From the NCBI GenBank assembly GCA_001788495.1, contig MGCF01000006.1:2106-66105 (forward strand): a stretch of 64,000 nucleotides of DNA, given 5' to 3'. A program made the position numbers and the translations under genes. The notes below the pieces were generated by a model. The model saw only the letters and a program-made list of their open reading frames with translations. It was not told the origin of the DNA and ran no database searches. The DNA comes from Candidatus Rokubacteria bacterium RIFCSPLOWO2_02_FULL_73_56. GTDB lineage: Bacteria; Methylomirabilota; Methylomirabilia; Rokubacteriales; CSP1-6. Positions 5,418 through 60,689 of the stretch are shown in pieces (the stretch's first letter is position 1; every line of letters begins with the position of its first letter).

Positions 5418-5576
5418 CCCGCACTGGAGACCGAGCCAGTTCCGGTAGAAGGCCTCCGGCGTCGCCGCCTCGGCGAACTCGCGCCAGAGGGCGTCGAAGG
5501 AAGGCTCCCTGGGGCCGACGCCGCTCAGCGGCGGCGGCGGCGTGATCGGACGGTGGACCTCGACCAGGGCCGGCTC

Positions 5577-5915
5577 TTACGACGCCGCCGGCGCGTCGGC
5601 CTGCGCTCCCTCGACCTGGACGGCGCCAAACCGGGCTTCATGTTCCCGCAACACGTTGGCCAGGAGCGTCGACAGCCGCTTGGCGACGAACGGGTTGAGG
5701 ATGAGTCGGTCGGTGAGCTGCACCGTCACGTCCTTCTGCCCGGCGTGCCACGCCTGGTTGATGCCGAAGAGCAGGACGACCTCCTCGCGCGTGCTCGCGA
5801 CGTTGCAGACGTTCGAGTACGAGCTCTTCATCCGGGAATCGTCCCACTTGATGGTGAGCTGCTGGGCCGTGCGCTCGGGCCCGGCCACAGCTTCGCGTTC
5901 ACGCTCGTCCGCCAT
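5577..5915 (-). CDS. DUF3467-like small protein, copy A
   Basis: Internal ATG (codon 112) of track ORF 5577..6248, preceded by GGAGAGGAG. Sequence: MADEREREAVAGPERTAQQLTIKWDDSRMKSSYSNVCNVASTREEVVLLFGINQAWHAGQKDVTVQLTDRLILNPFVAKRLSTLLANVLREHEARFG. It matches my recollection of the DUF3467 pattern (YaN...s..Ef.l.FG......RiilsP..AKrL...L......YE..fG). Confidence 0.8.
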   Translation of the reverse strand: MADEREREAVAGPERTAQQLTIKWDDSRMKSSYSNVCNVASTREEVVLLFGINQAWHAGQKDVTVQLTDRLILNPFVAKRLSTLLANVLREHEARFGAVQVEGAQADAPAAS

Positions 5916-5944
5916 ACCGTCTCCTCTCCTCCGCGCAGCGGGTC

Positions 5945-6892
5945 TCAGCTCGATGGGGTCCGGGTCAGTATGCCCGGCGGCCGCGGAGCCTCGGCCGCTC
6001 GAATGGGCACGAGCTCCGCGGCGTGCCACCCGTACCTCGCCGCGTAGGCCGCGTTGAGCCCCAGGCACCGCGTCGAGCTGCACGCCTCGCGATGCACGCA
6101 CTGGTAGAAGCCGTTGCGCCGGAACTCGGTCCAGAAGGCGGGGTCGATGAACAGCCGCGGCTGCGAGTTGTCGAGCGTGTCCCCGTCCTCGCCCAGCAGG
6201 CAGTGCGGAAAATTCTTGACCATGACGCCACGGTCGAGCGCGTGGCATCTGGCGATCGCCGTCCTCAGGAAGGGGAGCACCTCGAGGTGGGATGCGCCCA
6301 GCTCCTTGACGTCCTGCTCGTTCATGGCGAAGTAGACCCAGAACTCGTGCTGGACCATCCGCCGCAGGTGTCCGAGCCGGTCGACGAGCCGGGGCAGATG
6401 CCGGTAGCTCTTCACCGTGACGACGGTGTTCGTGAGGGTCGCGACGCCCGGCAGCGCGTCCAGGTTCTCCAGGCCCCGGAGGGTCTTGTCGAACGATCCC
6501 GGCACTGTCGTGATCGCGTCGTGCGTCTCGGCGTCCGCGGCGGTGACGCTCACGAAGAACTCGTCGACTCCCGCGTCGACCAGCTCTCGGCAGTAGGCCT
6601 CGCTCGCCAGGCGCATCCCGTGCGTCTGGATCCGCACGTGCTCGAAGCCCCTCCGCCGCGCCTGTCTGGCCAGCTCCGGCAGGTCACGCCGCAGCGTGAT
6701 CTCCGCCCCGGTGAGGATCAGACCCGTCCACCGTCGGTGCGTCGCGTTGTAGTCCAGGAGCTGCTCGAACCGGCTGAGCGACTCCGGCTCCAGCCGGTCC
6801 ATGGTGTCCTCGATCATGCAGTGGACGCAGGCCAGATTGCAGCGGAACTCCAGCGTCATCGACACGTAGCGATCGTCGTCAAACCGTCCCAC
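5945..6892 (-). CDS. Radical SAM enzyme with a Cys-rich C-terminal region that may hold an auxiliary cluster
   Basis: Track ORF of 315 aa. CNLACVHC (CxxxCxxC) at codons 18-25. GLILTGAEITLRRDLPELARQARRRGFEHVRIQTHG is TIM-barrel rSAM-like. C-terminal cysteines: HCLLGEDGD...FYQCVHREACSSTRCLGLN. Confidence 0.85.
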   Translation of the reverse strand: MGRFDDDRYVSMTLEFRCNLACVHCMIEDTMDRLEPESLSRFEQLLDYNATHRRWTGLILTGAEITLRRDLPELARQARRRGFEHVRIQTHGMRLASEAYCRELVDAGVDEFFVSVTAADAETHDAITTVPGSFDKTLRGLENLDALPGVATLTNTVVTVKSYRHLPRLVDRLGHLRRMVQHEFWVYFAMNEQDVKELGASHLEVLPFLRTAIARCHALDRGVMVKNFPHCLLGEDGDTLDNSQPRLFIDPAFWTEFRRNGFYQCVHREACSSTRCLGLNAAYAARYGWHAAELVPIRAAEAPRPPGILTRTPSS

Positions 6893-9134: not shown

Positions 9135-10252
9135 TGCGCGCCGAAGTAGATGGAGAGGAAGTCCTTGCCTTCCCGGTCGAAACCGCCCGTCACGTGCCCG
9201 AAGGGCGCCGCGCTCACCTGCGCGTACGCCGCCTCGAACCGGTCCGCGGAGATCGCGTAGTGCTCGCAGATCCTGAGGAACAGGGCGTGGAGATCGCGCA
9301 GCCGCAGTCGCGCGTTGTAGAGGTTGATGTCGAACGAGTTCCGCGGGTTCCCCTCCTCGGTGGTCTCCAGGTACAGGAATCGATCGGCGGCCACCCGGCC
9401 CGCGGCCTGCAGGACGATCTCGCGCGCGAGCGCGAGCGGGGTACCGGAGGGGCCGCCCGCGAAGGCGCGGGCCATCCGCTCCAGCATGTCGTCGGTGGAG
9501 AGCCCGGGATGGCACGTGTACCGCGCGACGGAGCACCGCCGGCTGTCGTCGGCATCCCACTTGAATCCCAGGTACATGAGGAGGGGATCCCGCCGGTTCT
9601 CCGCCTTGGCCCTGACCAGTCTCCCCCCGAATTCCAGATAGGCCTTGTAGCGCTGCGTCCGCTCGCTCTCCTCGAAGCCGAAGAAGACGATGTTGGCCTG
9701 GAAGATGTTCTCGCGGAACGCCGCCACGAAGCGCTCCGGCATCCGGAGGCGCTCGCAGATCGCCAGGAGGCGCCCGCCGGCGTCCTCGCTGAGCGAATCC
9801 CGCTTGAAGCCCCACAGGAACCGGTTCGCGAGCAGGGTCCGCTCGAACATCTTGAAGGAGCGCTCGAGCACCGGCTGGACTCCGAGGTCCTCGACGAGGC
9901 GAAGCAGCTCGGCGGCCTGCTCGGGGATGCCTTCGGTGAGCGACACGGGCGACTTCCGGCTGGAGAGCGGCGCCGCCGGCGGCAGCGGCTCGCCCCCGAG
10001 CGAGCCGTGCTCCCACTCGTAGTCCCGGACGGCGTGCGCCAGCATGGCCGCGAGCCGCTTCGCGGTGGAAGGGCTCAGGACGATCCGGTCGGACACCTCG
10101 AGCACGAGCTCGTCGGTGCCGGGCACCCGGCGCCCCTTGCTCCCGAAGGACAGGGTGACCTCCGAGCGATCGGCGGACAGCTCGAACACGTTCGCGTAGC
10201 TCGTGCTCGCATTCGAGCCTTCCCAGCGCACCGGGACCCGAGCCTCAGACAT
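9131..10252 (-). CDS. Fusion protein (X1): N-terminal DUF3467-like domain (copy C) plus a ~270-aa unknown domain paralogous to X2
   Basis: Track ORF of 373 aa with GGAGGG 6 nt upstream. N-terminus: VRWEGSNASTSYANVFELSADRSEVTLSFG...LEVSDRIVLSPSTAKRLAAMLAHAVRDYEWEHG. C-terminus: IVFFGFEESERTQRYKAYLEF...LLMYLGFKWD...NSFDINLY...FGHVTGGFDREGKDFLSIYFGAQ. Confidence 0.75.
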   Translation of the reverse strand: MSEARVPVRWEGSNASTSYANVFELSADRSEVTLSFGSKGRRVPGTDELVLEVSDRIVLSPSTAKRLAAMLAHAVRDYEWEHGSLGGEPLPPAAPLSSRKSPVSLTEGIPEQAAELLRLVEDLGVQPVLERSFKMFERTLLANRFLWGFKRDSLSEDAGGRLLAICERLRMPERFVAAFRENIFQANIVFFGFEESERTQRYKAYLEFGGRLVRAKAENRRDPLLMYLGFKWDADDSRRCSVARYTCHPGLSTDDMLERMARAFAGGPSGTPLALAREIVLQAAGRVAADRFLYLETTEEGNPRNSFDINLYNARLRLRDLHALFLRICEHYAISADRFEAAYAQVSAAPFGHVTGGFDREGKDFLSIYFGAQ

Positions 10253-10345
10253 CGGGGCCCTCCGCGCCCGACGGGTCGGCGGGGCCGACGCCGCCGCGTC
10301 CGCTCCTACCCGCCTCCACCGCCGGGATCAGTCTCCCTCGACACG

Positions 10346-13300
10346 TCACGCTCCGCTGATCGCGGTCGCGGGGCTCGCCTCGACCAGCTCGATGTCCGGG
10401 GCCACGTCGATGCTCCAGTCCAGGAGGTGCGACTCCGCCGACTCCGGCCGACTCAGCTCACCGCGCCGCGCGGCCGTCGTCAGGCTGCTCCAGAGATCCC
10501 CCGCCGCGTCGCCGTCGAAGATCCGGAAGTCGCGCAGGGCCGCCAGGACCCCGCCGCCGCGCTGCTCGTCGCGCGTGCTCAGGCCCGCGAACGCCCCCGC
10601 CGACCAGTCGATCCCCGGCGCGGCCGGTGCGAGGCGCACCGGCCCACCGAGCGCGACCTCGACAGGCTGCGCGGAACCCGTGTCGTGCGCGACGAGCCGC
10701 TCGCCCTGCGTCAGCGTCGGCGACATCACGTCGGCCACGCCCTCGTGCGCGAATCCCATCACGTGTCCGAGCTCGTGCATGGCCACCGTCAGCAGGTCCA
10801 CGCCGCCACTGCCGCCGCCGACGATCCAGCCGTACCCTGCAGCGTCGGCGTCGAAGACGATCGAGCGGCCCACGGTGGTGGCGAGCACCGGCCCGTCGAG
10901 CTCCGCGACCGCGAACCGGAAGTCCGCCAGCGCCCCCAGCCGCGAATCCCCGTTGCCCAGCGTGTCGGTCCACTGGCGGATCGCCGTGTCGACCGCGCCG
11001 TCCAGCGTGCGGACGTCGAGCGTGCCGGTCGCCGCCGGTGCGGACGCGATGGCCGCCGCTTCCATGTTCTGGCCGCCCGACTGCGCGAAGGCGGGATCCG
11101 TCGTCTTGATCGTGACGTTGTCGAAGCTCGCCGCTCCGCCGGTCGCGAACACGCCGAATCCGCCGTCCACGACGACCGCGTTGAACGCGAAGCCGACGAC
11201 CGCCTGACCGTTCAGCGTCACGCTGACCGTCGACCCCTTCAGCGAGATGCCCAGCGTGTAGTCGGTGCCCGCGTTGATCGTCCGGGCCACCGACGCGTCG
11301 ATGACCCAGCCGTTCTTCGCCGTGTAGTGCCCGATCACGACCTTGTCCGCGGGCGCGTCGATCGCGACGAACTTGAAGTCGTCCCCCTCGTACCGGTCGA
11401 AGACGAAGCCCGCGCGGCCCTGCGTGTTGACGATCGAGGACAGCTCGAGCACCGACGATACCTGGAACCCGCCGACGCCGAGGTCGATCAGCTTCGCCGC
11501 GGTCCCGCCCGAGGGCGGCACGGCCACGTAACGGCCGCCGCTCACGGCCCACGTTCCGCTCGTCGCGCCCGTGAACAGGTCGGCGACGCCGTCGCCGAAG
11601 TCCTCGGTCGACTGGAACGTCGCGGCCGCCTGCACCACCTGCACCTGGACGTTGTCGAACGAGCCGCGCGAGTTGTCCGAGCCCACCCCGACGAGGCCCC
11701 AGTTCAGGCCGTACGACCAGCCGTCGATCACCCGCGGCGCGAACGTGTAGGTCAGCGAGTCCTTGTTGTTGACGATGATCGTGGCGTTGAGGCCGTTGAT
11801 CGACAGCATCATGTTGTAGTACGTGTCGGCCTTCGCCAGGAACGGCGTCTGCTTGTCCACGTGCCAGCCCGAGGCGTCCCGGTGGCCGGCCACCAGCTTG
11901 TTCGTGGAGATGTCGATGCCGGTGAACTTGAAGTCGGTCTTCGTGTTGTAGTCGAAGATCAGGTAGGCGTTCCCCTTCCAGCCTGCCGTCGGCTTCACCA
12001 CGTCGACCGACGCGAGCATCTCGAAGTAGGCGGGCAGCGCGTCGCCGACCTGGTACACGGCGACCGCGTCGCCGCCCAGCGACTGCGCCGACACCTGGAG
12101 CGCGCCGCCCGAGACCGTCCACGCCCCGGAGTCGGCGAAGAACGCCTGGGCCGTACCGTCGTTGAAGTTCGCCGACCGCAGCACGTCGCGCTTGCCGCCG
12201 GGAACGTTCCCCGGCTGCGGGTCCGTGGGCGCGCCGGTCTGGTCGTGCCACGCGAAGTCCTGCTGCCTGATGACGGCGAGCTCGCCCTCCGGCTCGCCGT
12301 TCCGCGTCGGGTCCGCGCCCGTGTCGGCGGCGCGCGTCGGGTCGGCGCCGTCGTTGGCCGACAGCTGGTAGAGGAATTCCGCGAGCTGCGGCTGCAGCGT
12401 GCGGCTCACCGTCGCCATGCCGAACGGCGCAAACGGCACGAGGTAGCTGTTGAACTCGCCGGCCCAGTCGATGAGCCGGTCGCCGCCCGTGTTGCCGATC
12501 AGGACGTCGCGGCCGGCTCCGCCGAAGGCGCGGTCCTCGTAGCTGGCGGCCGTGTCGGGCGCGTTGTTGAGCCCGCCCGCCGTGGTCAGCACGTCGTCGG
12601 CGTTGAGCAGGTCGTTGCCCCAGCCGCCGTAGAGGTCGTCGCGACCCGTGCCGCCGACGAGCCAGTCGTTGCCCGTGTCGCCGAAGAGCGCGTCGTTGCC
12701 GTCGGAGAAGATCCCCGTCGCGACCTCCGCGCCCTCGGTGCTCACGAAGTTGAGGAAGAACTCCTTGCCCGCGCCCGTCTTCGACAGCTCGCCCACGTCC
12801 GTCAGCAGGATCTTCCGCAGCGGATCGTACTCGTCGTACAGCGCGAACTCGCCCGCGCGCCGCGTCCGGTCGACGTGCCAGCCGTCCGGGTCGTCCGGGT
12901 TGAAGCGGAGGATGTCGCCGTCCGCGAGGTTGAGCGGATGCCCGTAGTCGGTGCGGATGACGCCGATGAGCAGGTCGGTGGCGTCGTACAGCTGCGCGTA
13001 GGACTCGACCGGTGCCTCGGCGCCGGAGATCGCGTCGTCCCCCGAGCCGCCGTGGAGCGTGTCGTTGCCGACACCGCCGTAGATGATGTCGTCCGACTTG
13101 TGCGCGACCGTCGCGGAGCCGCCGAACTCGTCCTGGGTGCCGTTGAAGGTCACGTCCACGCTGAACGGCGTGAGGTCGGCCGTCTTCTTCAGCTGGCCGC
13201 TCACGTTGATGGTCGCCGACTGCACGTTGCCCGGCGTCGTGATGAGCAGGTCGAGCTGGCCGGCGAGGCTGCCGATCCCGTACAGCGGCTCCGCCGTGCC

Positions 13301-16300
13301 GTTCCGGCTCGTGAAGAGCCGGCCGTCGTCGCCGAGGACGCCGTCGTCGCCGGCGCCGCCCGAGATCCAGTCGTTGCCGTAGCCGGCCACGAGGTCGTCG
13401 TCCTGCCCCTCGCCGAAGAGCACGTCGTTGCCCTTCATGCCGTAGACGACGTCGTCGCCGCCCTCGCCGTGCAGCTCGTCCGCCGCGCCGATGTCGGTCG
13501 CCGCCTGCGCCGCCGTCGGCGCGTAGTCGAGACCGCCCGGGGTGTAGTCGACGAGCTGGACGCCGCGCACGACGATCTTCGCCTGCGGCACCGCCGGCGG
13601 GTCGTTCGTGTAGGTGTCGTAGTTGAAGGCCAGGAAGCCGCCGAACATCTCCACGCCGCCGCCGCCGCCCGGCGCGTCGTTGACGCCGAGCAGCCGATAG
13701 ATGTTGCCGTTGTCGCCGAGGATCACGTCGGCGTCGGTCGCGTGGCCCTGCGGCGTCAGGTTGCCCGCGTCGTTGCGTGCGACCGCGGTCCCGGAGCCGC
13801 CGAAGACGAGGTCCGAGCCGTCCGGCCGTTGGTTCGGCGTCTCCAGGCTGAACAGCGTCGAGCTGCCGCCGATGATGTCGTCCTGGCCCTGGTTGCCCAG
13901 GATGACGTCGTTCCCGCCGTTGCCCTCGACGTAGTCGTCGCCGTCGGTGGCCGCGTCGAAGGACGGGTTCAGGACGAGGGCGTTGCCCGCGTCCCGGGAG
14001 GCGCCGACGCGCGAACCGTTGCTCACGAAGTCGATCGAGCCGTCGCCCTGGATCACGTCGTCGCCGAGCTCGCCGAAGACCGTGTCGTCGCCGCCGCCGC
14101 CGGCGATGTAGTCGTTGCCGTAGAGGACGGCCGGCGTGCCGTTGGCGTGGTCCAGGAGCGTGATCTGGAAGTCGGCCCAGGCCGCGCTCCCACGCGGGTC
14201 CGCGTACTGGCTGGCCGAATTGATCAGGAGCTGGCCGGCCGTGGCCGCGGCGGTGCTGTAGACCTGCGTGCCGCTCAGCACCCGGAACCGCGGATTGGTG
14301 AAGTCGCCGAGCGTCAGCGACCGGTCGAGCGACACGTTGTCACCGAAGATCAGGTCCTTGTCCAGGCCGCCGTCGATGGCGTCGCTCCCGGTATTGCCGA
14401 TGAGGATGTCGTCGCCGGCGTTTCCGTACATCGTGTCGTCGGCGCCGTCGCTGTTGCTCTTGCTCTCCACCTGGATCACCCCGGCCGTCGACAGCAGCGT
14501 CTCCGCGATCGTCTGCGTGACGAGGCCGAAGTCGCCGAACTCGATGTCGGCGCCGCCGTCGCCGAAGAGCGTGTCCTGGCCGGGCGTCAGCGTGTCGTGC
14601 GTGTCCGGCGGGAACCCGGGAATGGGCGCCGACACGGCGAACACCGTGACCAGCTCGCGGTCGTAGAGCGTGCGGTCGATGACACCGCTGTCCTGGTTCG
14701 GCTCGGGGATGCTGACGGTCGTCTTGTGGACGTTGAACCCGTCGTCGCCGTAGATGATGTCGTCGCCGTCCTGGCCGTGGATCGTGTCGTGGCCCGAGCC
14801 GCCGGCCAGGTGGTCGCCCGCCTGGCTGCCCCAGATCGTGTCGTCGCCGCGCCCGCCGAAGATCGTGACGCTCTGGGTGGCGTTGCGCGCGTCGATCACG
14901 TCGTCGCCGGGGTTGTTGAAGGCGATCGCGTGCACCGACGCCACGCCCGACGTGCCGACGTACCGGCTACCGTCCTGCGAGGTGTCGCCGAAGACGACCA
15001 GCGGCGAACCCGCACCGCCGCCGCCGTTGATGGTGATGGTGTCGCTGCCGCCGCCGCCGTGCACGAGGGTGAGCGGGCCGCGGGTGCCGTCGGGCGCGGC
15101 CATCGTGCCGTCGATCGTCAGGCTGTCGTCGCCGCGGCCGAGCATGACCTCGAGCGTCTCGACCATCGTGTAGTTGATGCCCTTGGCGAAGTCGTGCGGC
15201 GTCCCGTCCTCGCCGACGAAGTGCAGGTCGGGGCCCATCCCGTTCATGAACAGGTTGCTGCCCGTCAGCGTGCCGACGTCGTTCGCGCCGCTGCCGTCGT
15301 TGAAGATGTTCAGCGTGTCGACCGAGCCCGTGTCGTCCGTGGTGATGACCTCGCCGACCGGGCCCGGATCGGTCTCGGTCGGCAAGATCACCGCCCGCCT
15401 GATCGAGCGGTCTTCTGGCCCGACGCTGCCGTCGATGGTGAGCGCTCCCTGGATCGCCGTGCTCGCCACGTGCGGCTGCACCGGGAAGAATTTCAGCGGC
15501 TGGATCTCGTCCGTCGGCGGGGCCTGCGGATTCGCCGTGACCCTGACGACGAACGGCGTGAACCAGTTGGTCGCGTCGAAGGTCACCGTGGCCGGGGTGA
15601 CGACCAGGCCGTCCGCGTCGAGGACGGCCGGGGTGAAGACCGGGCCGCCCGGCGGCACGACCACCGCCGAGTCGACCAGCGTCTGGTCGTCCGTCAGGAG
15701 GGCGATCGTCACCGCCGCCGCCGGCGCGTGCGTCAGCCGCAGGCTGTACGTGTCGCCGGTCGGGTCGCCCTTCACCACCAGCGTCGATCCGTCGGTCTCC
15801 CGCACGTAGACGCCGGCTCCATCCGTGTCGATGAGCTTGACGTTCAGCTTCGGAGCCGGCTTCGTCGCGAAGAAGCTTGTGTAGCTCGCGTCGGTGCCGC
15901 CCACCGCATGGCTGATCTGCGCCGTCACGGGATTCTGGACGACGAAGTCCTGGGCGGCCGCCACGTCCACGGTCGCAGCCACGTCCCAGTTGGACTCGTC
16001 GAACGTGAACGTCTGTGTCCCGGCGTTGTATCGCGGGTCGAGGCTCGAGAGCGCCAACCGCGCGTCGCTCGGACTCAGCGTCACCGTCACGGTCTGGCCC
16101 GCCGCCGGCGCCTTCGCGAGCTCCAGCGTGTAGCTGTCGGTGAGGCCGTGCGTGCCGGCCGCAGCGTCCTCCTCGAGCACCACCGTGTCCAGGTCGGTAT
16201 GCGTGAGGCGCAGCCCGGGCTGGTCGTCGTCGAGGACCCGCACCTTCACGTTGCGGATGGCCACGTGGTTGAAGTCGTCGTCCAGGCTACGGCTGCTCAT

Positions 16301-19300
16301 GCTCACGATGACCAGCCCGTCGCCTTCGCGAGCGACATCGTCGATGGCCTTGACCGTCACCGTCTTCTTGGTGCCCGCCGGCGTGCCCGCGGCGAACGTG
16401 AGCACGGCCGCGGGCTGGAAGGTGGCTCCCCCGTCGATCGACACCAGGAGCGTGGCGGCGCCGAGCGCCCCCGCCTCGGACGGGGAGCCGGCCGCCGACA
16501 CGGTGATGTACACGTCGTCCGTGGGCGCGGCCGCGAGGCTCACGTCGTAGGAGTCTTCCGTCGCGCCCGCCTCGCCCACCGTCGTCGCGCCGCCGCTCTC
16601 CTCGATCACGATCTGCCCCGAGGCCGGGGTCGCCACGTGCAGGTCCACGCCCTCCGCGGGCAGGTTGTCGTATGCCGGGTCGGTCGAGGTCACCTGGTGG
16701 TTGATGACCGCGCTGATGCCCTCCAGGTCACGGCTGACGATCGGCAGCGTCACGTCGCCGCCCACGTTGAACGTGTCCCAGCCGATGCCGCCGACCACGT
16801 TCACCGCCACATCCGCCGGCGTGCTGAGGACGAAGAAGTTGTCGTTCCCCTCCAGCCCGTCGACGGTGATGGACTGGACGTTCTCGAACGTGATGTGCAG
16901 CCCGGCCCCGAAGATGCCCTCCTCGGAGATCGCGAAGTTGTCGCTGAACTCGGTGCCGAGGACGACGATGCGGTTGAAGCCGGTGCCGCCGTCGATGTCC
17001 ACCGGCGCGTTGACGGTGTACTGGATGAGGTCGTTGCCGTCGCCGCCCAGCGCGGCCGCCTGCGCCGCCGTCGACAGGTCCTTCAAGACCTCGCCCGTGA
17101 GCGGGTCGGCCAGCGCGAAGGCGCGGATGATGAACGTGTCGTCGCCCGCGTTACCCTCGAGGCGCAGCTCCGCCTGGTTCGCGTACACCTGCATCGTATC
17201 GTTGCCCGAGCCGCCGTAGACCACCATGGGGAAGGTGACCCCGCGGCTCAGCCAGCCCTTGGTCGTGTAGATGGTCGCGATCTCGTCCCCCGGCGCCACG
17301 GCCGGCGGGATCCGCTCGGCGCCGAAGACCTGGCCGACCTGGAAGAAGTCGTCCCCGGCCCCGCCGTCGAGCGTCGTGATGCTGCTGTTGTCGTCGCTGT
17401 AGAACGCGTCGGCGCCGGTGTAGCCGTTGACGATCAGCCGTCCGTTGACGTTCTCGTCGTAGTTGATCCGCTCGACGCCGGCCAGCAGGTGCTGCGGGTC
17501 CGGCTCCGGCAGGTGGGCCGGATCCGGCGTCAGGTACGCCACGAAGTTCCGCCGGACCAGGAACAGGTCCTCGCCGTCCGGGTTGTTCGAGTCGCCGACC
17601 TCGGTGCCGTTGATGGTCAGCGTGTCGGCGCCGTCGTCCGGGGCGCCCGTGTCGAACACGTTGATGACGTAGTCGGTCGCGGTGGCGTCGGCCCGGACGT
17701 TGACCACGACGTCGTCCGTGTCGCCCTGGCCGTCGATGTCCAGGGTCGAGGCCCGCGTGTGCAGCTCGTTCACCGTGACGAGGTCGTGCCCGGCGCCGCC
17801 GAAGACCTCCACGTGGCCCGTCAGCGCGTGCGTCGGGAAGCCCGGGTCCGCGGGCCCGTGGTTCTCGTAGTCGAAGGTGATCGCGTCGTCGCCGTCCTCG
17901 CCGTAGTACCGGATCTCGGGCGCGGTGACCGTCCCCTTCGTCAGGATCGTGTCGCCCCCGCCCCCGCCGTGGACCTCCACGAAGCTCGCCGCGGTGACGT
18001 GGGCGTCGTCGACGAGGATCGTGTCCGCGTCGCTGTTGCCGGAGATCACGAGGTCGCCGGTCTGGATCGTGCCGTCGACGTCGATCGTGCTGCCGAGGCC
18101 CGGGTCGCTGTTGCCGAAGTCGCCGTCGATGATGACGTGCCCGCCCGCGCCGGTGACGAGCGAGGCGCCGCCCTCCAGGTGAAAGTCGTCGCCCGCGTGC
18201 AGCGTGATCGTGCCGTTGACGAGCACTGCCCCGGTCGCGTCCGCGTCCGGGCTGCCGAAGTCGTAGACCGCGGTCTTGAGGAAGAATCCGCTGCGGACGA
18301 CCAGGTGGTCGTCAGCGCTGTCGTCCGTCGCGATGTAGGTGATGTTGAGCGCGACGACGTTCTCGGTGATGTCGATCGGGCTGTCGGCGGTGACGGTGAT
18401 GTCGCCGCCCGCGGCCATGCCGGGGTCACCGCTGTCGACGACGCCGCCCTCGGTCAGGTCGCCCGTGTTCACGATCCACGTGCTGCCGAGGATCGCCTTG
18501 CCCTCGAGGAAGCCGATCTCCGTGTTCAGCGGGTTGCCGGCCGCGCCGATGTCGTCGCGCGCCACCAGGTACGCCTTGCCGGAGACCACGTTCTGCGGGC
18601 TGACGTTGCTGTTCAGGATGCTGCCCGTCGGTGCCGTGAGGAAGGCGGTGAACGCCGGGCCCGTGCCCGCGGTGTTCAGGTACAGGTCGCCGAGCACCTC
18701 GATGATGTAGGTGTTGGCGAGGTTGCTGTACGAGGTCAGCACGCCGGCGCCGTTCAAGCGGCTGTTGATGTCCACGTCGTTGCCGGACACGCCGATGCCG
18801 AGGAACGCCGTGAGCGTGATGCTGTTGCCGATGATCTCCGCGGCCGGCGTGTTCATTGCGTCGAAGATCGAGCCGGTGAACGCGTCGAGGTCCACGTTGC
18901 CGCTGTTCGACTGGACGTGCTCGACGTTCATGTCGCCGAACGTCTCGGAGACGAAGATGTCATCGTCCGCGTCCGCCACGAGGGTGCCGGTGCCGTTCAC
19001 GTCGACGTCGAGATAGTCGCCCGGCTCGCCGATCCCGCCGTTGTGCGCGGTCAGCACGACGTGGTTGGCGTTGATCTTCGTGAAGTCCGTGTCCAGCGCG
19101 TCGAGGATCGAGCCGTCGAGCGCCGTCAGGTGCACACCTTCCACACCGCTCTGCGAGAACATGAACTCCACGTTCATGTCGTCGTTCTGCTCGACGAGGT
19201 AGATCGCGCCGAGCGCGCGCGCCGTGATCGTGGCGCTCGCGCCGAGGTCGGTCTTGACCGGGGTCACCGCCGTCCCGATCGAGCCGTTGGCCGCTTCGAG

Positions 19301-22300
19301 GATGGTGTCGCCACCGATCACGTTGGTGCCGCCCGTCACGTTCAGGATCGACTGGCCGCTCTTGATCCGGATGTCGTCGTCGAGATCCGTCTGCACGAGG
19401 CCGAGGTTGATGTTGTGGGTCTCGGACCCGAGGTAGACGCTGTCGTGCGCGCCGACGTCGACCTGGTCCACGATCTCGACGTCGACGTCCTCGCGCTGGT
19501 CGATGACGATCGTGTGGATGTTCGCGCCCGGCGCGGTCGGGTCGTTGACCTCGGGCGCGATGGTCAGCACGACGCCGTCCTGGTCCAGCAGGTTCGCGGT
19601 CACGACCAGGTCCGCCCCGGAGACGGAGGCGACGACGTAGAACTCGCCCACGTCCGTCGCGTTCGCGCCGCCCGTCACGTGGATCCGCGTGTCGGGCGCG
19701 AACAGGACGGGGTCCCAGGTCCCGGACGTCCGGTGGAACGTGTGGGGCCCGGTGACGTCGACGGTCGTGGTGACCGCCGGACCCAGGTACGTCACGTCGA
19801 CGCGCTCGGCGGCCGCGAGCGCCACGCGCTCGTCGTTCGTGAGATTGTGGACGCCCCCGCTCACGTCGATGGTCGTGACGCCGACCGCCTTGCCCACGCC
19901 CTTCGACGCCGTGATGACCAGATTGGCGCCGGTGATGTTCGGCTCCTCGATCGTCGGGCTCGTGTCCGCGATGTCCTTCAGGAGGCCGGTGCTGATCGTG
20001 TAGAGCAGCTCCTCCTCGGTGAAGATGTGGATGCTGCCCTCGATGTCCGAGGTCTCCTGCGCCGTCAGCGTGTAGGCGAATGACGCATCGAAGCCGTCGA
20101 ACTCCAGGCCCACGAGGTGATCGACGAGCCCGCCCGGCTCGCCGTACTGCGTGTTCAGCGTGTGGTACTGCGCCGTCCGGCTCGCCTCGAGCGCCAGGAT
20201 GGCCGCGTCGTCGTAGCCGAGCTGGGTCCGGTAGAAGGCCTCCTCCTGCGGCCGCAGGTGCACCGGGAAGGCGATGTCGAAGACGTTGCTGCGGTACTTC
20301 ACCGCGGCGCCGGTGCTGAGCCCGTGGCCCGCGATGTGGATCGTGTCCGTCGCGCTGTCGACGTCCGCCAGCGGGTCGAACAGCCCGGTGCCCACGCCGC
20401 CGGCGTCCAGGCGGTGCTGGGTGCCCAGCGCGCCCGTGCTGTCGAGGTCGAGGTAGTGCCCGAGCCCCGCCTCCAGCGCGCTGACCGCCAGCCGCACGTG
20501 GTCGTCGTCCACCTTGACGATGTAGTACGTCCCGTCGGGCGCGAGGACGTCGGACACGACGGTGTGCACGGCCGTGTCGCCGGTCTCCACGCTGTAGCGG
20601 ACCACGTCGCCCGTCGCCAGGCCGTGGCCCGTCCCGAGATCGATCGCGTCCAAGGCGTTGTCGAGGTCCGTCGAGGTGCTGAAGAGCCGCACGCGATACA
20701 GCGCCTGGCTCGCCGGCGAGCCGTTCGCTGTCAGGTTCACGAAGCCGGCGTCGGCCAGATGCACCTTCAGCTTGATCGTGTTCGCGTCGACGACGCTCAC
20801 GTAGTACGTGAGGCCCTCGGTGAGCCCGATGCTCGTGCCGTGGGTCTCCTGGCTGTAGGTCACCGCGTCGCCCTCGCTCAGGCCGTGGGCGGCGAGCGTG
20901 ATCGTCTCGGCCGTGCCGTCGACGGCGGTCTTGGCGTCGAAGAACAGGCCCGTGCCGACCGTGATACCGTGGCCGGACCCTGTGGCGCCGGTCCCGTCGA
21001 TGTCGATCGCCTTCCCGCTCTGGGCGTCGCCCGCGCTCAGGGCGAGCTTCATCGTGTCGCCGGCGACGATGGCGTAGTACTTCACGCCGCCGCCGAGCGC
21101 CACGGAGGCCTCGTGGATCGTGAGCGGCGCGCTCGGCTGGCTGTGCCGGTACTCCCAGTACGTCTGGTACTCCTGCTCCCGCAGCGCGGCCAGCGAGTCC
21201 TTGACGTCCTGGACCTTGGCGTTGGCGCCCGTGCCCGCGGTGAGCCGCAGGTCGTGCCACGGGCCGGCGAGCAGCTGCTCGTACGTCCGCTCGTCGCGCG
21301 TCTCGGCCTCGTTGGCGTCGACGACGCCGCCGTTGACCACCGTGATGTGCACGTCCGCCGGCGTCGAGATCGACTCGACGTTCAGGTTGCCGTCCTTCTC
21401 CTGGACGTAGATGTCGGCGCCCGCGGCGATGTTCACCTTGTCCCACTGGAAGACACCGGCGTCGAGGATGAGCGGCTTGCCGTTGGCGCCGACGGCGCCG
21501 TTGGCGGTCAGTCCGATGGCGCCGCCCTCGACGAGCCCCTCGTGCCCGCTCGCCACGAAGATTCCGCCCTGCGACGTCAGCGTGACCTCGCCGCCCGAGC
21601 CGAAGATGTTGTGCTGGCTCTTCACCTGGTCGACGCGCAGGTCGCCGAAGCGCTCGTCGATGTGGACCTCGCCCGACGTGGTCGTCGCCTTGAGGCTCGC
21701 CGACGAGTTCTCGCTGAGGTCGGTCGTGATCGGGTTCTGGTCGGTCCCGACGCCGGTGCCCGCGATCAGCTCGATCCGCTGGCCGGCGACGACGGCGTCG
21801 GCGCTCTGCTGGATGATCGACTTGGTCGTCGAGATCTTGGTCGTGCCGGTCGGGTTCGTCACCGGCCCGTTGAGGATGACGTTGCCGTTCGAGTCGACGT
21901 CGATGTCGCCCTGGGTGAAGCCGATGAACTGCACGCTGATCGGCCGGTCGGACTCGATGGTGTGCGTGAAGACGTGCAGGTTGTCCTGCTCGGCCTCGAT
22001 CTCGTTGTGATACGTCGTCTCGCCGTACCAGGTGCTGTCCGAGTGCTGGTCGATGATGTGGATCTTCTTCTCGCTCTCGTGGATCTCCTCGTAGTCGAAC
22101 GTGTACTTCACGCCGTCCAGCGCGAGGTCCTTGAAGTAGTAAGGGCCGTTGCCGAGGAGCACCGGCGGGCCGAGGGGCTCGTGCTGGTCCCAGGTGACGG
22201 TCTCCGGATCCACGGACAGCCAGTCGATACCGAGCCACGCGCTCACGTCGTGGTGGTAGTAGAAGTAGTCACGCGTCCGCGCGCCGCGCTGCCAGCCGTA

Positions 22301-55242: not shown

Positions 55243-55500
55243 CTACCCCGACCGGCGCAGGGCGGCGATCATATCCAGCACCCGCAGGATCTCGCGCCCT
55301 CGCGGTCCACGACGAACGTCGAGCGGTAGGCGACGTTGCGCTCGGCGTCGAGCACCGGGAAGGCGCGGAGGGCCGTGCGGTGGACGTCGGCCAGGAGCGG
55401 GAACGGCAGGGCCCGCGCCCGCGCGAACGCGGCGTGGCAGAACGGGCGGAACCCGGGGGCGGCGTGGCCGAAGCGCAGGCCGGTCACGCCGGCGGGTCCT
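55243..55500 (-). pseudogene. Remnant of a peroxiredoxin (BCP/AhpC-TSA type) gene. It is N-terminally truncated and frameshifted near the 3' end.
   Basis: One frame gives FCHAAFARARALPFPLLADVHRTALRAFPVLDAERNVAYRSTFVVDREG and then stops. A second frame continues EILRVLDMIAALRRSG-stop. The N-terminal active-site Cys region is missing and is replaced by the 3' end of the enoyl-CoA hydratase gene. Confidence 0.55.
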
Positions 55501-59170: not shown

Positions 59171-59389
59171 CTAGCGCGCATTATTCACGAACGGTCAGCG
59201 CGCGAGCCGGGCAGGGCCTGTCGCAGGGTGCGGTCCTCGCGGGGCCGGCGCCGTCACCCATTCGCCCGAACGCCGCGCTGCGCGCGGCGGACGGGACGAA
59301 GGGGGCCCACAGCGCGCGGCCCCGCGAGGGCCGCACCCTGCGCCACCCGCCCGGTCGTGCCAGCGCCGTTCGCGAATAACGCGCGCTAG
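59171..59389. repeat. Long (~219 bp) imperfect palindrome bounded by CTAG, filling the gap between two convergent genes
   Basis: The outer arms are ctagcgcgcattattcacgaacgg and ccgttcgcgaataacgcgcgctag (24 nt, 2 mismatches). The inner arms are cgcagggtgcggtcctcgcggggccg and cggccccgcgagggccgcaccctgcg (26 nt, 1 mismatch). The right-hand CTAG supplies the TAG stop of the OsmC-like gene. Confidence 0.7.
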
Positions 59390-59886
59390 CGCGCCGACGC
59401 GCTCGAGAGCGCGACGACCGCGTCGCCGGCGCGCAGCGTGGCGTCCCAGCCGATCGCGATCGCGCCCTTGACGCTCTCGTGGGCGGGGCAGCCCTGCGGG
59501 TGCACGGCGAGCGCGCGCTCGGCGGCCTCGCGCGCCTCCGCCGGCACGCTGAGATCGTAGTGGACCTGGATCGACGCGATGCGGATCGTCGTGCCCGTGC
59601 CGACGATGCGCCCGTCCACCGTCGCCGTGTACGCGCTCCGGTCGAACGTGATCTTGCGCCCTGCCAGGGCGCCGGCCAGCGTGCCGTACATTCAGCCGGC
59701 CACCGCCGCCACGATGTGATCGAGCGTCGAGGCCACCGGCGGGCCCGCCTTGACGCCGTAGTACGCGCGGAGCGCGCCCTGCACGCCGTAGACGACCGGC
59801 TCCGGGACCTCGCCCAGCCACGCGTTGCGGAAGCCGCCGCGGTACTCGAGGCGGGCGTGCGAGACGTACTCGAACTCCTGGCTCAT
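59386..59886 (-). CDS. OsmC/Ohr-family peroxiredoxin-like protein with an in-frame TGA (59692-59694) at the conserved catalytic Cys position. It is either a candidate selenoprotein or a nonsense pseudogene.
   Basis: The last 64 codons of track ORF 59692..61041 (MSQEFEYVSHARLEY...ASTLDHIVAAVAG), the TGA, and track ORF 59386..59691 (MYGTLAGALAGRKITF...VHPQGCPAHESVKG...) are all in one frame. Together they make a normal-length OsmC protein of 166 codons. A strong GGAGGAGGAGGA RBS precedes ATG 59886. Confidence 0.6.
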
Positions 59887-59915
59887 GCGGTCCTCCTCCT
59901 CCTCGTCGGTCGGCT

Positions 59916-60485
59916 CTACGCCGCCTTGACCGTCAGCACCGGGCACGGCGCCATCCGGATCACGCGATCGGCGACGCTCCCCACGAGGAGGCGATGGACC
60001 TCGCCGCGCCCGTGCGTGGCGAGCAGCACGAGGTCCGCCTGCTCCTCCTTCGCGGCGGCGACGACCTCGCGGTAGGGCACGCCGACGCGCAGGAGCGTGC
60101 GCACCCGGCAACCGGCCGCGCGCCCGGCGTCGGCCCACTCCTCGAGCTTCCTGGCCCACTCGCGCCCCGCGGCGGAGAACTCGCGCACCCGCTCGCCCGC
60201 GAGGGGCCCGGCGAAGACGCGCCCGGGCGGCGGCACCTCGCCTTCCTCGTCGGCGCGCGGGATCCCGAGCTGGTGCTCCGCCTGCAGCGCCCGCAGCTCC
60301 GCGCGCAACTCCTCGGTCTGCAGCCGGACCTCGGTGTCGATCGGCGTGGCAGGCAGGACGTGCAGCAGCACCAGCTCGGCCCCGAAGCTCGGGGCGAGCC
60401 GCTGCGCCAGGCTCCAGGCCTTCTCCGACCCGAGGGAGAAGTCCGTGGGCACCAGGACCCGGGTGATGCCGGAGGTCGTCGTCAT
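59916..60485 (-). CDS. Universal stress protein (UspA family)
   Basis: Codon 58 onward of track ORF 59916..60656. MTTTSGITRVLVPTDFSLGSEKAWSLAQRLA...ADLVLLATHGRGEVHRLLVGSVADRVIRMAPCPVLTV. Confidence 0.85.
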   Translation of the reverse strand: MTTTSGITRVLVPTDFSLGSEKAWSLAQRLAPSFGAELVLLHVLPATPIDTEVRLQTEELRAELRALQAEHQLGIPRADEEGEVPPPGRVFAGPLAGERVREFSAAGREWARKLEEWADAGRAAGCRVRTLLRVGVPYREVVAAAKEEQADLVLLATHGRGEVHRLLVGSVADRVIRMAPCPVLTVKAA

Positions 60486-60689
60486 GGCTGCGCCCTCCCT
60501 TCGTACCGAACGCTCTACGTGCATGAAGCCTGCCGCGGCACCGGAGGGCCGGGCGTCGCGGAAGTGCCCGAGCGGGCGCGCCCTCGGCGAGGCGGCGGGA
60601 CCTCCGCCCGGCGGGCGCCCTGGGGCGCGCGACCCCCGGCGGGGCGCGCATGCCACAAGCCCGGCAGGCGCGCCCCCTCGACGGCGGCC

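Follow-up and report, generated by a model that had tools for sequence, protein, structure and literature searches.

The window analyzed here (the whole 64,000-nt stretch of contig MGCF01000006.1, assembly GCA_001788495.1, from Candidatus Rokubacteria bacterium RIFCSPLOWO2_02_FULL_73_56) carries on its minus strand an OsmC-like gene with a TGA codon inside its reading frame, and the sequence evidence makes it very probable that this is a genuine selenoprotein gene, one gene and not two, in which TGA specifies selenocysteine (Sec). This interpretation, put forward in an original prediction made from the letters of the window alone, is supported by our comparative analysis. The argument is carried by the conservation of the TGA in all 81 compared loci and by the frozen synonymous sites of a hairpin that follows it, which together are far beyond chance.

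The minus-strand open reading frame (ORF, 59886..59386) extends from an ATG at 59886-59884 to a terminal TAG at 59388-59386 and comprises 166 codons, counting its single in-frame TGA (59694-59692), which is directly followed by another ATG (59691-59689). The encoded peptide reads ...STLDHIVAAVAG-TGA-MYGTLAGALAGRKITF... around this codon and, further on, ...VHPQGCPAHESVKG.... In the ORF list the same DNA appears as a 101-aa C-terminal ORF (its ATG is counted within the 101 codons) abutting the upstream frame, and the coordinates originally reported for these two same-frame ORFs (stop 59692-59694, ATG 59689-59691) were confirmed by translation. The claim of a strong ribosome-binding site (RBS) before the first part only also holds: the run GAGGAGGAGGAGGA is located 4 nt upstream of the start codon, and no such motif precedes the internal ATG. 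Among the long ORFs of the window with a high G+C content at third codon positions (GC3), TGA is the commonest stop (15 of 26, vs. 11 TAG); it is thus used as an ordinary stop, and the genetic code is not reassigned. Five other places in the window where two ORFs of one frame, both with high GC3, are separated by a TGA were considered as possible further Sec genes; they look like usual gene ends with the next gene behind them.

The comparative analysis was based on a protein search that yielded 1475 relatives in a database of protein clusters, mostly of metagenomic origin, and on a scan of one genome per species, in which 230 relatives were encoded; the best 80 of these 230 loci were fetched and, together with the window, make up the set of 81. 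Nearly all relatives from the protein search are ~100 aa long and start with MYGTL... exactly past the TGA, only a few being full length, and an exhaustive profile-free search with a cysteine-containing homolog (P0002) returned numerous fragments having either residue 64 as their last or residue 66 as their first. The 80 fetched loci come mostly from metagenome-assembled genomes (MAGs) of Rokubacteria/Methylomirabilota and Ktedonobacteria/Chloroflexota, the closest of them (L001, a Rokubacteria MAG) sharing 90% amino-acid identity with the window; the complete genome of Ktedonobacteria strain brp13 (AP024096) has two copies of the gene.

TGA is present at the same codon in 80/80 loci from other species (81/81 with the window), between ...STLDHIVAAVAG and M[YF]GTL.GAL.GR, as opposed to the terminal stops of the same 81 genes, which vary (TAG in 41, TAA in 22, TGA in 18). 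Almost all of the 81 loci have, 64 codons upstream of the TGA, an ATG that is preceded at 5-10 nt by a GGAGG-type motif. The median ratio of nonsynonymous to synonymous substitution rates (dN/dS) is 0.14 before and 0.21 after the TGA (0.29 and 0.25, respectively, for the window vs. L001), and these low values on both sides indicate that both parts are translated in this frame. A pseudogene or a sequencing error, with TGA being a nonsense mutation or a miscalled cysteine codon, could be suspected because TGA is one substitution away from TGC and TGT and the close homolog P0002 does read TGT. It is nevertheless vanishingly improbable and, in effect, excluded by the recurrence of TGA in 80 independent assemblies of different species and by purifying selection on both halves; the sole clearly degraded copy (P0009/L094, with CGA and frameshifts) looks different. 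The contrary pattern named in the original prediction (relatives with TGC and further disabling mutations in this copy) was not observed; in all 80 loci, the coding sequence that flanks the TGA is intact and under purifying selection on either side.

The second line of evidence is a hairpin, GCGCCCU-GGC-AGGGCGC, whose stem begins 19 nt past the UGA and which is found after the same 19-nt spacer in 81/81 loci. The 6-bp G+C stem with a 5-nt loop (UGGCA) described originally is an alternative reading of the same element, to which a U-A pair is added here to give a 7-bp stem and a loop of 3 nt; the UGA-to-loop distance, originally given as ~25 nt and as lying within the range of bacterial SECIS models, is 25-26 nt. 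The published model of the bacterial Sec insertion sequence (bSECIS) asks for an upper stem of 4-16 bp, a UGA-to-loop distance of 16-37 nt and a minimum free energy (MFE) of no more than -7.5 kcal/mol (PMC13188914). With a stem of 6-7 bp, the above spacing, an MFE of -12.0 kcal/mol and, as the fourth feature, a 3-5-nt loop of the pattern U-G-(G/U)-C-A, the hairpin of the window agrees with this model in all four respects. RNAalifold recovered the 7-bp hairpin as the sole consensus helix; 99.8% of the hairpin cells are paired, and C->U changes giving G-U pairs are the sole changes. As a candidate lower SECIS stem or second helix, we considered an upstream CGGCA/UGCCG hairpin; it occurs in Ala variants only, and RNAalifold retains the 7-bp helix alone.

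Selection on this RNA element is best seen at synonymous sites. Third-base entropy is 0-0.82 bits at the six four-fold degenerate codons of the hairpin (GGY GCC CTG GCA/TCA GGG CGC) vs. a median of 1.59 bits at 63 other four-fold codons (Mann-Whitney p = 3e-5), and the mean pairwise identity of third positions is 0.91 in the hairpin vs. 0.44 elsewhere. Since GC3 of the 81 genes spans 0.40-0.97, composition is not the cause of these frozen sites. The codons immediately past the UGA are similarly constrained: the first is ATG in 81/81 loci, the second is TAC in 69, TAT in 5 and, in 7 variants with Phe, TTC, and the third is GGC in 81/81 at a four-fold site. This ATG TAC GGC stretch is outside the predicted hairpin and may be due to an effect of UGA context or to a pairing that escaped detection.

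The position of the TGA in the protein is that of a catalytic residue. When read with Cys at the TGA, the joined product matches the Pfam OsmC family (PF02566) at 36.5 bits vs. a gathering threshold of 27.5, in agreement with its original description as a full-length OsmC/Ohr-type protein of 166 codons; the C-terminal half alone scores 25.2 bits, under the threshold, and the N-terminal piece matches nothing. The same family is matched by 30 of 31 homologs. An AlphaFold2 model of the homolog P0002, built from a 31-sequence alignment, reached a predicted local distance difference test (pLDDT) score of 95.9 and places residue 65 inside a helix spanning residues 54-76; the best 50 PDB matches listed by Foldseek for this model are all OsmC, Ohr or OsmC-like proteins, with template modeling (TM) scores of up to 0.84. 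By phmmer against PDB sequences, residue 65 corresponds to Cys60 and C133 to Cys124 of Pseudomonas aeruginosa Ohr (1n2f), and by the family profile they correspond, respectively, to the Cys of 'AGC'/'AAC' and the Cys of 'GCPVS' in the OsmC proteins of Thermus thermophilus (1ukk) and Escherichia coli (1qwi), i.e., Cys59 and Cys125 in OsmC numbering. These alignments and the fold indicate that TGA replaces the peroxidatic Cys, as originally proposed from its place at the first conserved Cys of the family, and the second Cys, said to be part of a CP motif, is indeed present as Cys133 ('GCP') and aligns with the resolving Cys. A redox-active Cys position is the typical site of Sec. By homology, the product is a putative hydroperoxide reductase of the OsmC/Ohr superfamily.

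Cysteine-containing relatives, whose alignment had been suggested as a check, point the same way: among 31 full-length distant homologs (30-52% identity), at least 90% have Cys at the TGA column, and C133 is invariant. Closer forms without an apparent TGA include only two real substitutions, namely P0002 (73% identical; TGT at the site, hairpin intact) and P0003 (TCG, i.e., Ser, at the site; hairpin degraded, with the relaxed codons GGT GTT CTG GCC). The 'W' form P0001 was rejected as a Trp homolog, as the gene caller had translated a TGA in its DNA into Trp, and by inference the same applies to the 'W' forms P0007 and P0095; the 'R' form P0009/L094 (CGA) was rejected as a true variant, being a frameshifted copy on a long-read contig. 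In the JGI calls for P0001 (L090 620, L091 545), both the internal and the terminal TGA are read as Trp, apparently by application of an alternative genetic code to these contigs, and the product is 174 aa long with an artificial C-terminal extension. A separate observation concerns P0153, a full-length homolog with 41% identity that reads ...IGAIGGWLTGTF... and has W at the Sec/Cys column; this W may be another TGA read as Trp, i.e., a second, more divergent Sec clade, which could supply SECIS covariation.

Several points weigh against the selenoprotein interpretation. As for the hairpin itself, the helix contains no double-sided compensatory change (three pairs vary one-sidedly, all by C->U, the helix being too conserved to covary), so its support is that of conservation and not covariation. 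A SECIS-like hairpin also follows 3.9% of the other open-frame TGAs in the G+C-rich DNA of the fetched loci, and at this background rate such a hairpin in one sequence alone is weak evidence. No Rfam SECIS family matched it, and a search of the whole window at Rfam gathering thresholds returned nothing; the matches obtained at E <= 10 in 59560-59760 (Actino-ugpB, Glutamine-II, mir-4018) were discarded as noise. The test for a conserved SECIS that had been named in the original prediction came out in its favor, given the recurrence of the hairpin in 81/81 loci and its fit to the published bSECIS criteria.

A further contrary point is the layout, TGA-ATG being the classic arrangement of translationally coupled genes. 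In such a split-gene arrangement, TGA would be a true stop and ATG a true start, and the resulting 64- and 101-residue polypeptides would assemble an OsmC-like fold without the first catalytic Cys; the stop/start abutment is exact, the ATG is invariant, and gene callers everywhere produce the 64-aa and 101-aa ORFs. We regard this as highly improbable, given that the stop is TGA in 81/81 loci even in genomes of ~50% G+C with mostly TAA/TAG terminal stops, that the break would cut the continuous helix 54-76 exactly at the catalytic residue, and that homologs carry Cys at the break position. Moreover, the frozen nucleotides, which form a SECIS-type hairpin, follow the ATG, whereas the place of a coupling signal or an RBS would be upstream of it; the codons from -12 to -1 before the TGA vary freely, which argues against either kind of signal.

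The machinery for Sec decoding, the presence of which the original prediction proposed to check, was looked for in the window and the 80 loci. Neither tRNA-Sec nor selA, selB or selD was found within the 64-kb window, the only part of its genome covered, where ARAGORN detected no tRNA of any kind. In tblastn searches of the window and the 80 loci with E. coli SelA, SelB and SelD as queries, the sole match was selA in L027, a part of a 401-kb contig of a Rokubacteria MAG with the ortholog at 10001-10480. In this locus, a tRNA-Sec with anticodon TCA is located at 18747-18844 (ARAGORN; Rfam RF01852, 69.7 vs. 47 bits) and the start of selA at 20169-20462, both ~8-10 kb downstream of the ortholog. 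Positions 1-848 of L027 hold the 3' end of a 23S rRNA gene and a 5S rRNA gene.

In 12 of the 81 loci, the OsmC-like gene is adjoined by a second TGA-containing gene, AhpC/TSA-like with the motif W-U-P-[FY]-C, the hairpin of which, 21 nt past the UGA, combines a 7-bp stem with a G(U/G)N triloop. Peroxiredoxin-like UxxC proteins are a known selenoprotein family (Kryukov and Gladyshev, in Table 1 of PMC13188914), and one Methylomirabilota MAG is predicted to encode 63 selenoproteins (2026 review, PMC13188914). Taken together, tRNA-Sec and selA on L027, the neighboring selenoprotein genes and the 63-selenoprotein MAG indicate that the lineages carrying the gene decode UGA as Sec and do so with hairpins of this style. 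These findings bear on another explanation, in which the UGA is decoded as Trp, Cys or Gly by a suppressor or near-cognate tRNA and the hairpin acts as a general stimulator of read-through. The inserted amino acid is not told by sequence alone and the window itself contributes no Sec genes, and yet such non-Sec read-through is very unlikely: in loop motif, spacing and size, the hairpin matches the SelB-dependent bSECIS model, the site is a redox-active Cys position, tRNA-Sec and selA are found near an ortholog, and the adjoining genes are of a known UxxC selenoprotein type with like hairpins.

The last contrary point comes from a Sec-peroxiredoxin gene in the same region. L001 has a full-length copy (~5550-6030; ...FYCYDWGGI-U-TPEL...) with its own hairpin ~4 kb from the OsmC-like gene, and L083, a contig of the same species, has another (~14200-14475), which seems frameshifted near its start and is cut by the contig end 45 codons past the UGA. 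In the window and in the sibling contig L084, a 180-nt in-frame deletion takes out both the Sec codon and the SECIS, along with a C-terminal frameshift, and what is left in the window is a 72-aa AhpC/TSA remnant at 55269-55487 (minus strand) between the enoyl-CoA hydratase and MoxR genes. This is a strain-level loss of a selenoprotein gene, and it could point to an erosion of the Sec trait in this strain. The OsmC-like gene of the window would then be a relic, a member of a true selenoprotein family in an organism that has lost or is losing Sec decoding and yields truncated products only, a scenario with which the lack of Sec genes within the 64 kb would also agree. Its probability is nonetheless small, as the ORF, RBS, hairpin and Cys133 of the OsmC-like gene are all intact, its 101-aa part is identical in contigs from 52 blocks of the collection index, dN/dS vs. 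L001 is 0.25-0.29 with no disabling change, and the loss of a single selenoprotein gene is common among Sec-using bacteria. A selenoprotein gene remains the preferred reading, and its features are collected in Table 1 together with the peroxiredoxin-like neighbors found in other loci.

Table 1. Features of the predicted OsmC-like selenoprotein gene in the window and positions of AhpC/TSA-like neighbors in orthologous loci
Feature	Coordinates	Strand	Details
Complete predicted selenoprotein coding sequence, OsmC/Ohr-fold	59386..59886	minus	64 codons + Sec codon + 101 codons, stop TAG
In-frame TGA, predicted Sec, residue 65	59692..59694	minus	equivalent to peroxidatic Cys59 of OsmC / Cys60 of Ohr
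SECIS-like hairpin GCGCCCU-GGC-AGGGCGC	59656..59672	minus	7-bp stem, 3-nt loop at 59665-59663
TGC codon, Cys133 in 'GCPAH' motif, presumed resolving Cys	59488..59490	minus	invariant in both alignments
Shine-Dalgarno-like run GAGGAGGAGGAGGA	59891..59904	minus	serves start codon 59886-59884
Codons +1 to +3 past UGA (ATG TAC GGC)	59683..59691	minus	frozen nucleotides, outside predicted hairpin
AhpC/TSA-like W-U-P-[FY]-C neighbors	L007 1857, L017 1669, L027 10652, L035 10652, L036 10230, L016 1558		
AhpC/TSA-like W-U-P-[FY]-C neighbors	L050 3617, L074 126, L080 1305, L012 746, L061 1435, L073 11446		

The immediate surroundings of the gene are less telling. A universal stress protein (Usp, PF00582) gene on the same strand (59916-60656, minus) has its end 29 nt before the start of the OsmC-like gene, and the two genes are probably co-transcribed; this pairing is common to L001 and the same-species contigs only. 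Among the neighbors, the Usp, NHL, cupin and enoyl-CoA hydratase genes are shared with L001 only (the enoyl-CoA hydratase gene also with one further locus) and the CoA-transferase gene with no locus, and with so little common synteny the gene context yields no functional clue for the window copy. Elsewhere in the window, a giant minus-strand ORF (10346-34384; 8012 codons, ~24 kb, GC3 0.97) occupies over a third of its length; the N-terminus contains 'LETLEPRLLLSA', and a C-terminal HELGHVMGFAHE motif resembles a Zn-metalloprotease.

Near-identical orthologs were also observed in bins assigned to unrelated phyla, including a Nitrosotalea sp. bin (L053, archaeal), Acidobacteria (L048), Actinomycetota (L050), Deferrimicrobiaceae (L052) and Acidoferrum (L056); they share 69-74% identity with the window protein and have the same SECIS. 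Such occurrences reflect either contaminated bins or horizontal movement of the gene.

A mechanism for the expression and action of this protein can be proposed from what is known of the respective families. Translation would begin at ATG 59886 behind the strong RBS; the hairpin (19 nt downstream, within the coding sequence) would recruit SelB with Sec-tRNA(Sec) to UGA 59694-59692, where Sec would enter as residue 65 in the middle of the active-site helix, and translation would run on to TAG 59388-59386. By analogy with OsmC/Ohr enzymes, Sec65 would be the peroxidatic residue attacking the hydroperoxide, Cys133 of the GCP motif would resolve the selenenic acid to a selenenylsulfide, and a dithiol donor would reduce the latter. 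We infer both parts of this scheme, i.e., SelB/SECIS-dependent recoding and peroxidase chemistry via selenenic acid and selenenylsulfide, from family knowledge. An OsmC with Sec in place of Cys would lend itself naturally to testing the contribution of selenium to the OsmC/Ohr peroxidase mechanism.

The practical value of these observations is mainly in annotation. All records inspected (gene calls of JGI, ENA and Logan; NCBI MAG records) either split the gene into 64-aa and 101-aa 'hypothetical / OsmC-like' ORFs or have its TGA translated as Trp, and such miscalling drops the catalytic residue from hundreds to thousands of database entries. For the search for further selenoprotein genes in these lineages, the gene also offers a very clean SECIS as a template, with a 7-bp stem and a G(G/U)C triloop located 26 nt from the UGA. 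With its recognition, the selenoproteomes of Rokubacteria/Methylomirabilota and Ktedonobacteria, soil phyla whose richness in selenium is only now becoming apparent, gain one more selenoprotein. No concept is changed by this addition, as Sec-containing OsmC-like proteins have been known since 2005; the result is unlikely to surprise a specialist, its use being in annotation and SECIS discovery in soil phyla.

A side-by-side comparison with known systems places the window protein, first of all, next to OsmC (E. coli 1qwi/1nye; T. thermophilus 1ukk) and Ohr (P. aeruginosa 1n2f; Chromobacterium violaceum 6eb4), with which it shares the fold (Foldseek probability 1.00, TM 0.6-0.84) and the alignment of both redox positions, the differences being Sec in place of the peroxidatic Cys and a sequence identity of 12-20%. 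Against the NCBIfam models of these two families, it scores 16.7 bits for OsmC (TIGR03562; cut-off 85.8) and gives no match for Ohr (TIGR03561).

The peroxiredoxin-like selenoproteins (AhpC/TSA, PF00578, UxxC) that adjoin the OsmC-like gene in some of the loci have a hairpin of like style; they differ by an unrelated thioredoxin fold and by the distance of the hairpin from the UGA (21 nt vs. 26 nt in the OsmC-like gene), and no W-U-P-[FY]-C gene is present beside the OsmC-like gene of the window. The W-U-P-[FY]-C and OsmC-like proteins may be functional partners. Extending this thought, one can speculate that the uncatalogued U-M-Y-G-T OsmC selenoprotein subfamily, with its near-invariant SECIS and wide distribution in soil and groundwater Rokubacteria and Ktedonobacteria, forms in part of the genomes a two-selenoprotein module of hydroperoxide detoxification with the W-U-P-x-C protein, the thioredoxin-fold partner serving as reductant; as a whole, this proposal is rather unlikely to be correct.

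The nearest known system is the marine family of OsmC-like selenoproteins. The original prediction mentioned such proteins from metagenomic surveys, and they are indeed on record: OsmC-like selenoproteins with the motif UxxT (COG1765) were described from the Sargasso Sea in 2005 (Zhang, Fomenko and Gladyshev, PMC1088965) and again in GOS (Global Ocean Sampling) data in 2008 (PMC2398784), and 'OsmC-like protein, PF02566, UxxT' is the sole OsmC entry among the 119 families of a 2026 catalogue (PMC13188914). Our literature search for this OsmC subfamily, or for OsmC selenoproteins of Ktedonobacteria or Rokubacteria, found only the marine UxxT family, although the subfamily could sit unlisted in some large-scale prediction set. 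The marine and window families agree in belonging to PF02566, in having a single Sec in the N-terminal half and Cys homologs, and in an in-frame UGA followed by a bSECIS in the coding region. In contrast, the Sec motif is UxxT in the marine family vs. U-M-[YF]-G-T (UxxxT) in 81/81 loci of the window family, which also has an extra conserved N-terminal segment (FEY.S.ARL.Y..G.R.A.LG) and occurs in Rokubacteria/Methylomirabilota and Ktedonobacteria of soil and groundwater, as opposed to marine plankton. With the NCBIfam model of the 'OsmC-related (seleno)protein' (NF041052), the window protein scores 18.4 bits vs. a cut-off of 95, its weak match covering the same protein region (residues 55-145 of the query, 43-136 of the model), and 0/31 relatives reach the cut-off (best E-value 9.8e-07), which sets the window family apart as a separate subfamily. 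Overall, this family would act like the known OsmC-like selenoproteins, with Sec at the peroxidatic position, yet is not a member by curated criteria, and the gene of the window is a new subfamily-level addition to the already known Sec-containing OsmC-like proteins.

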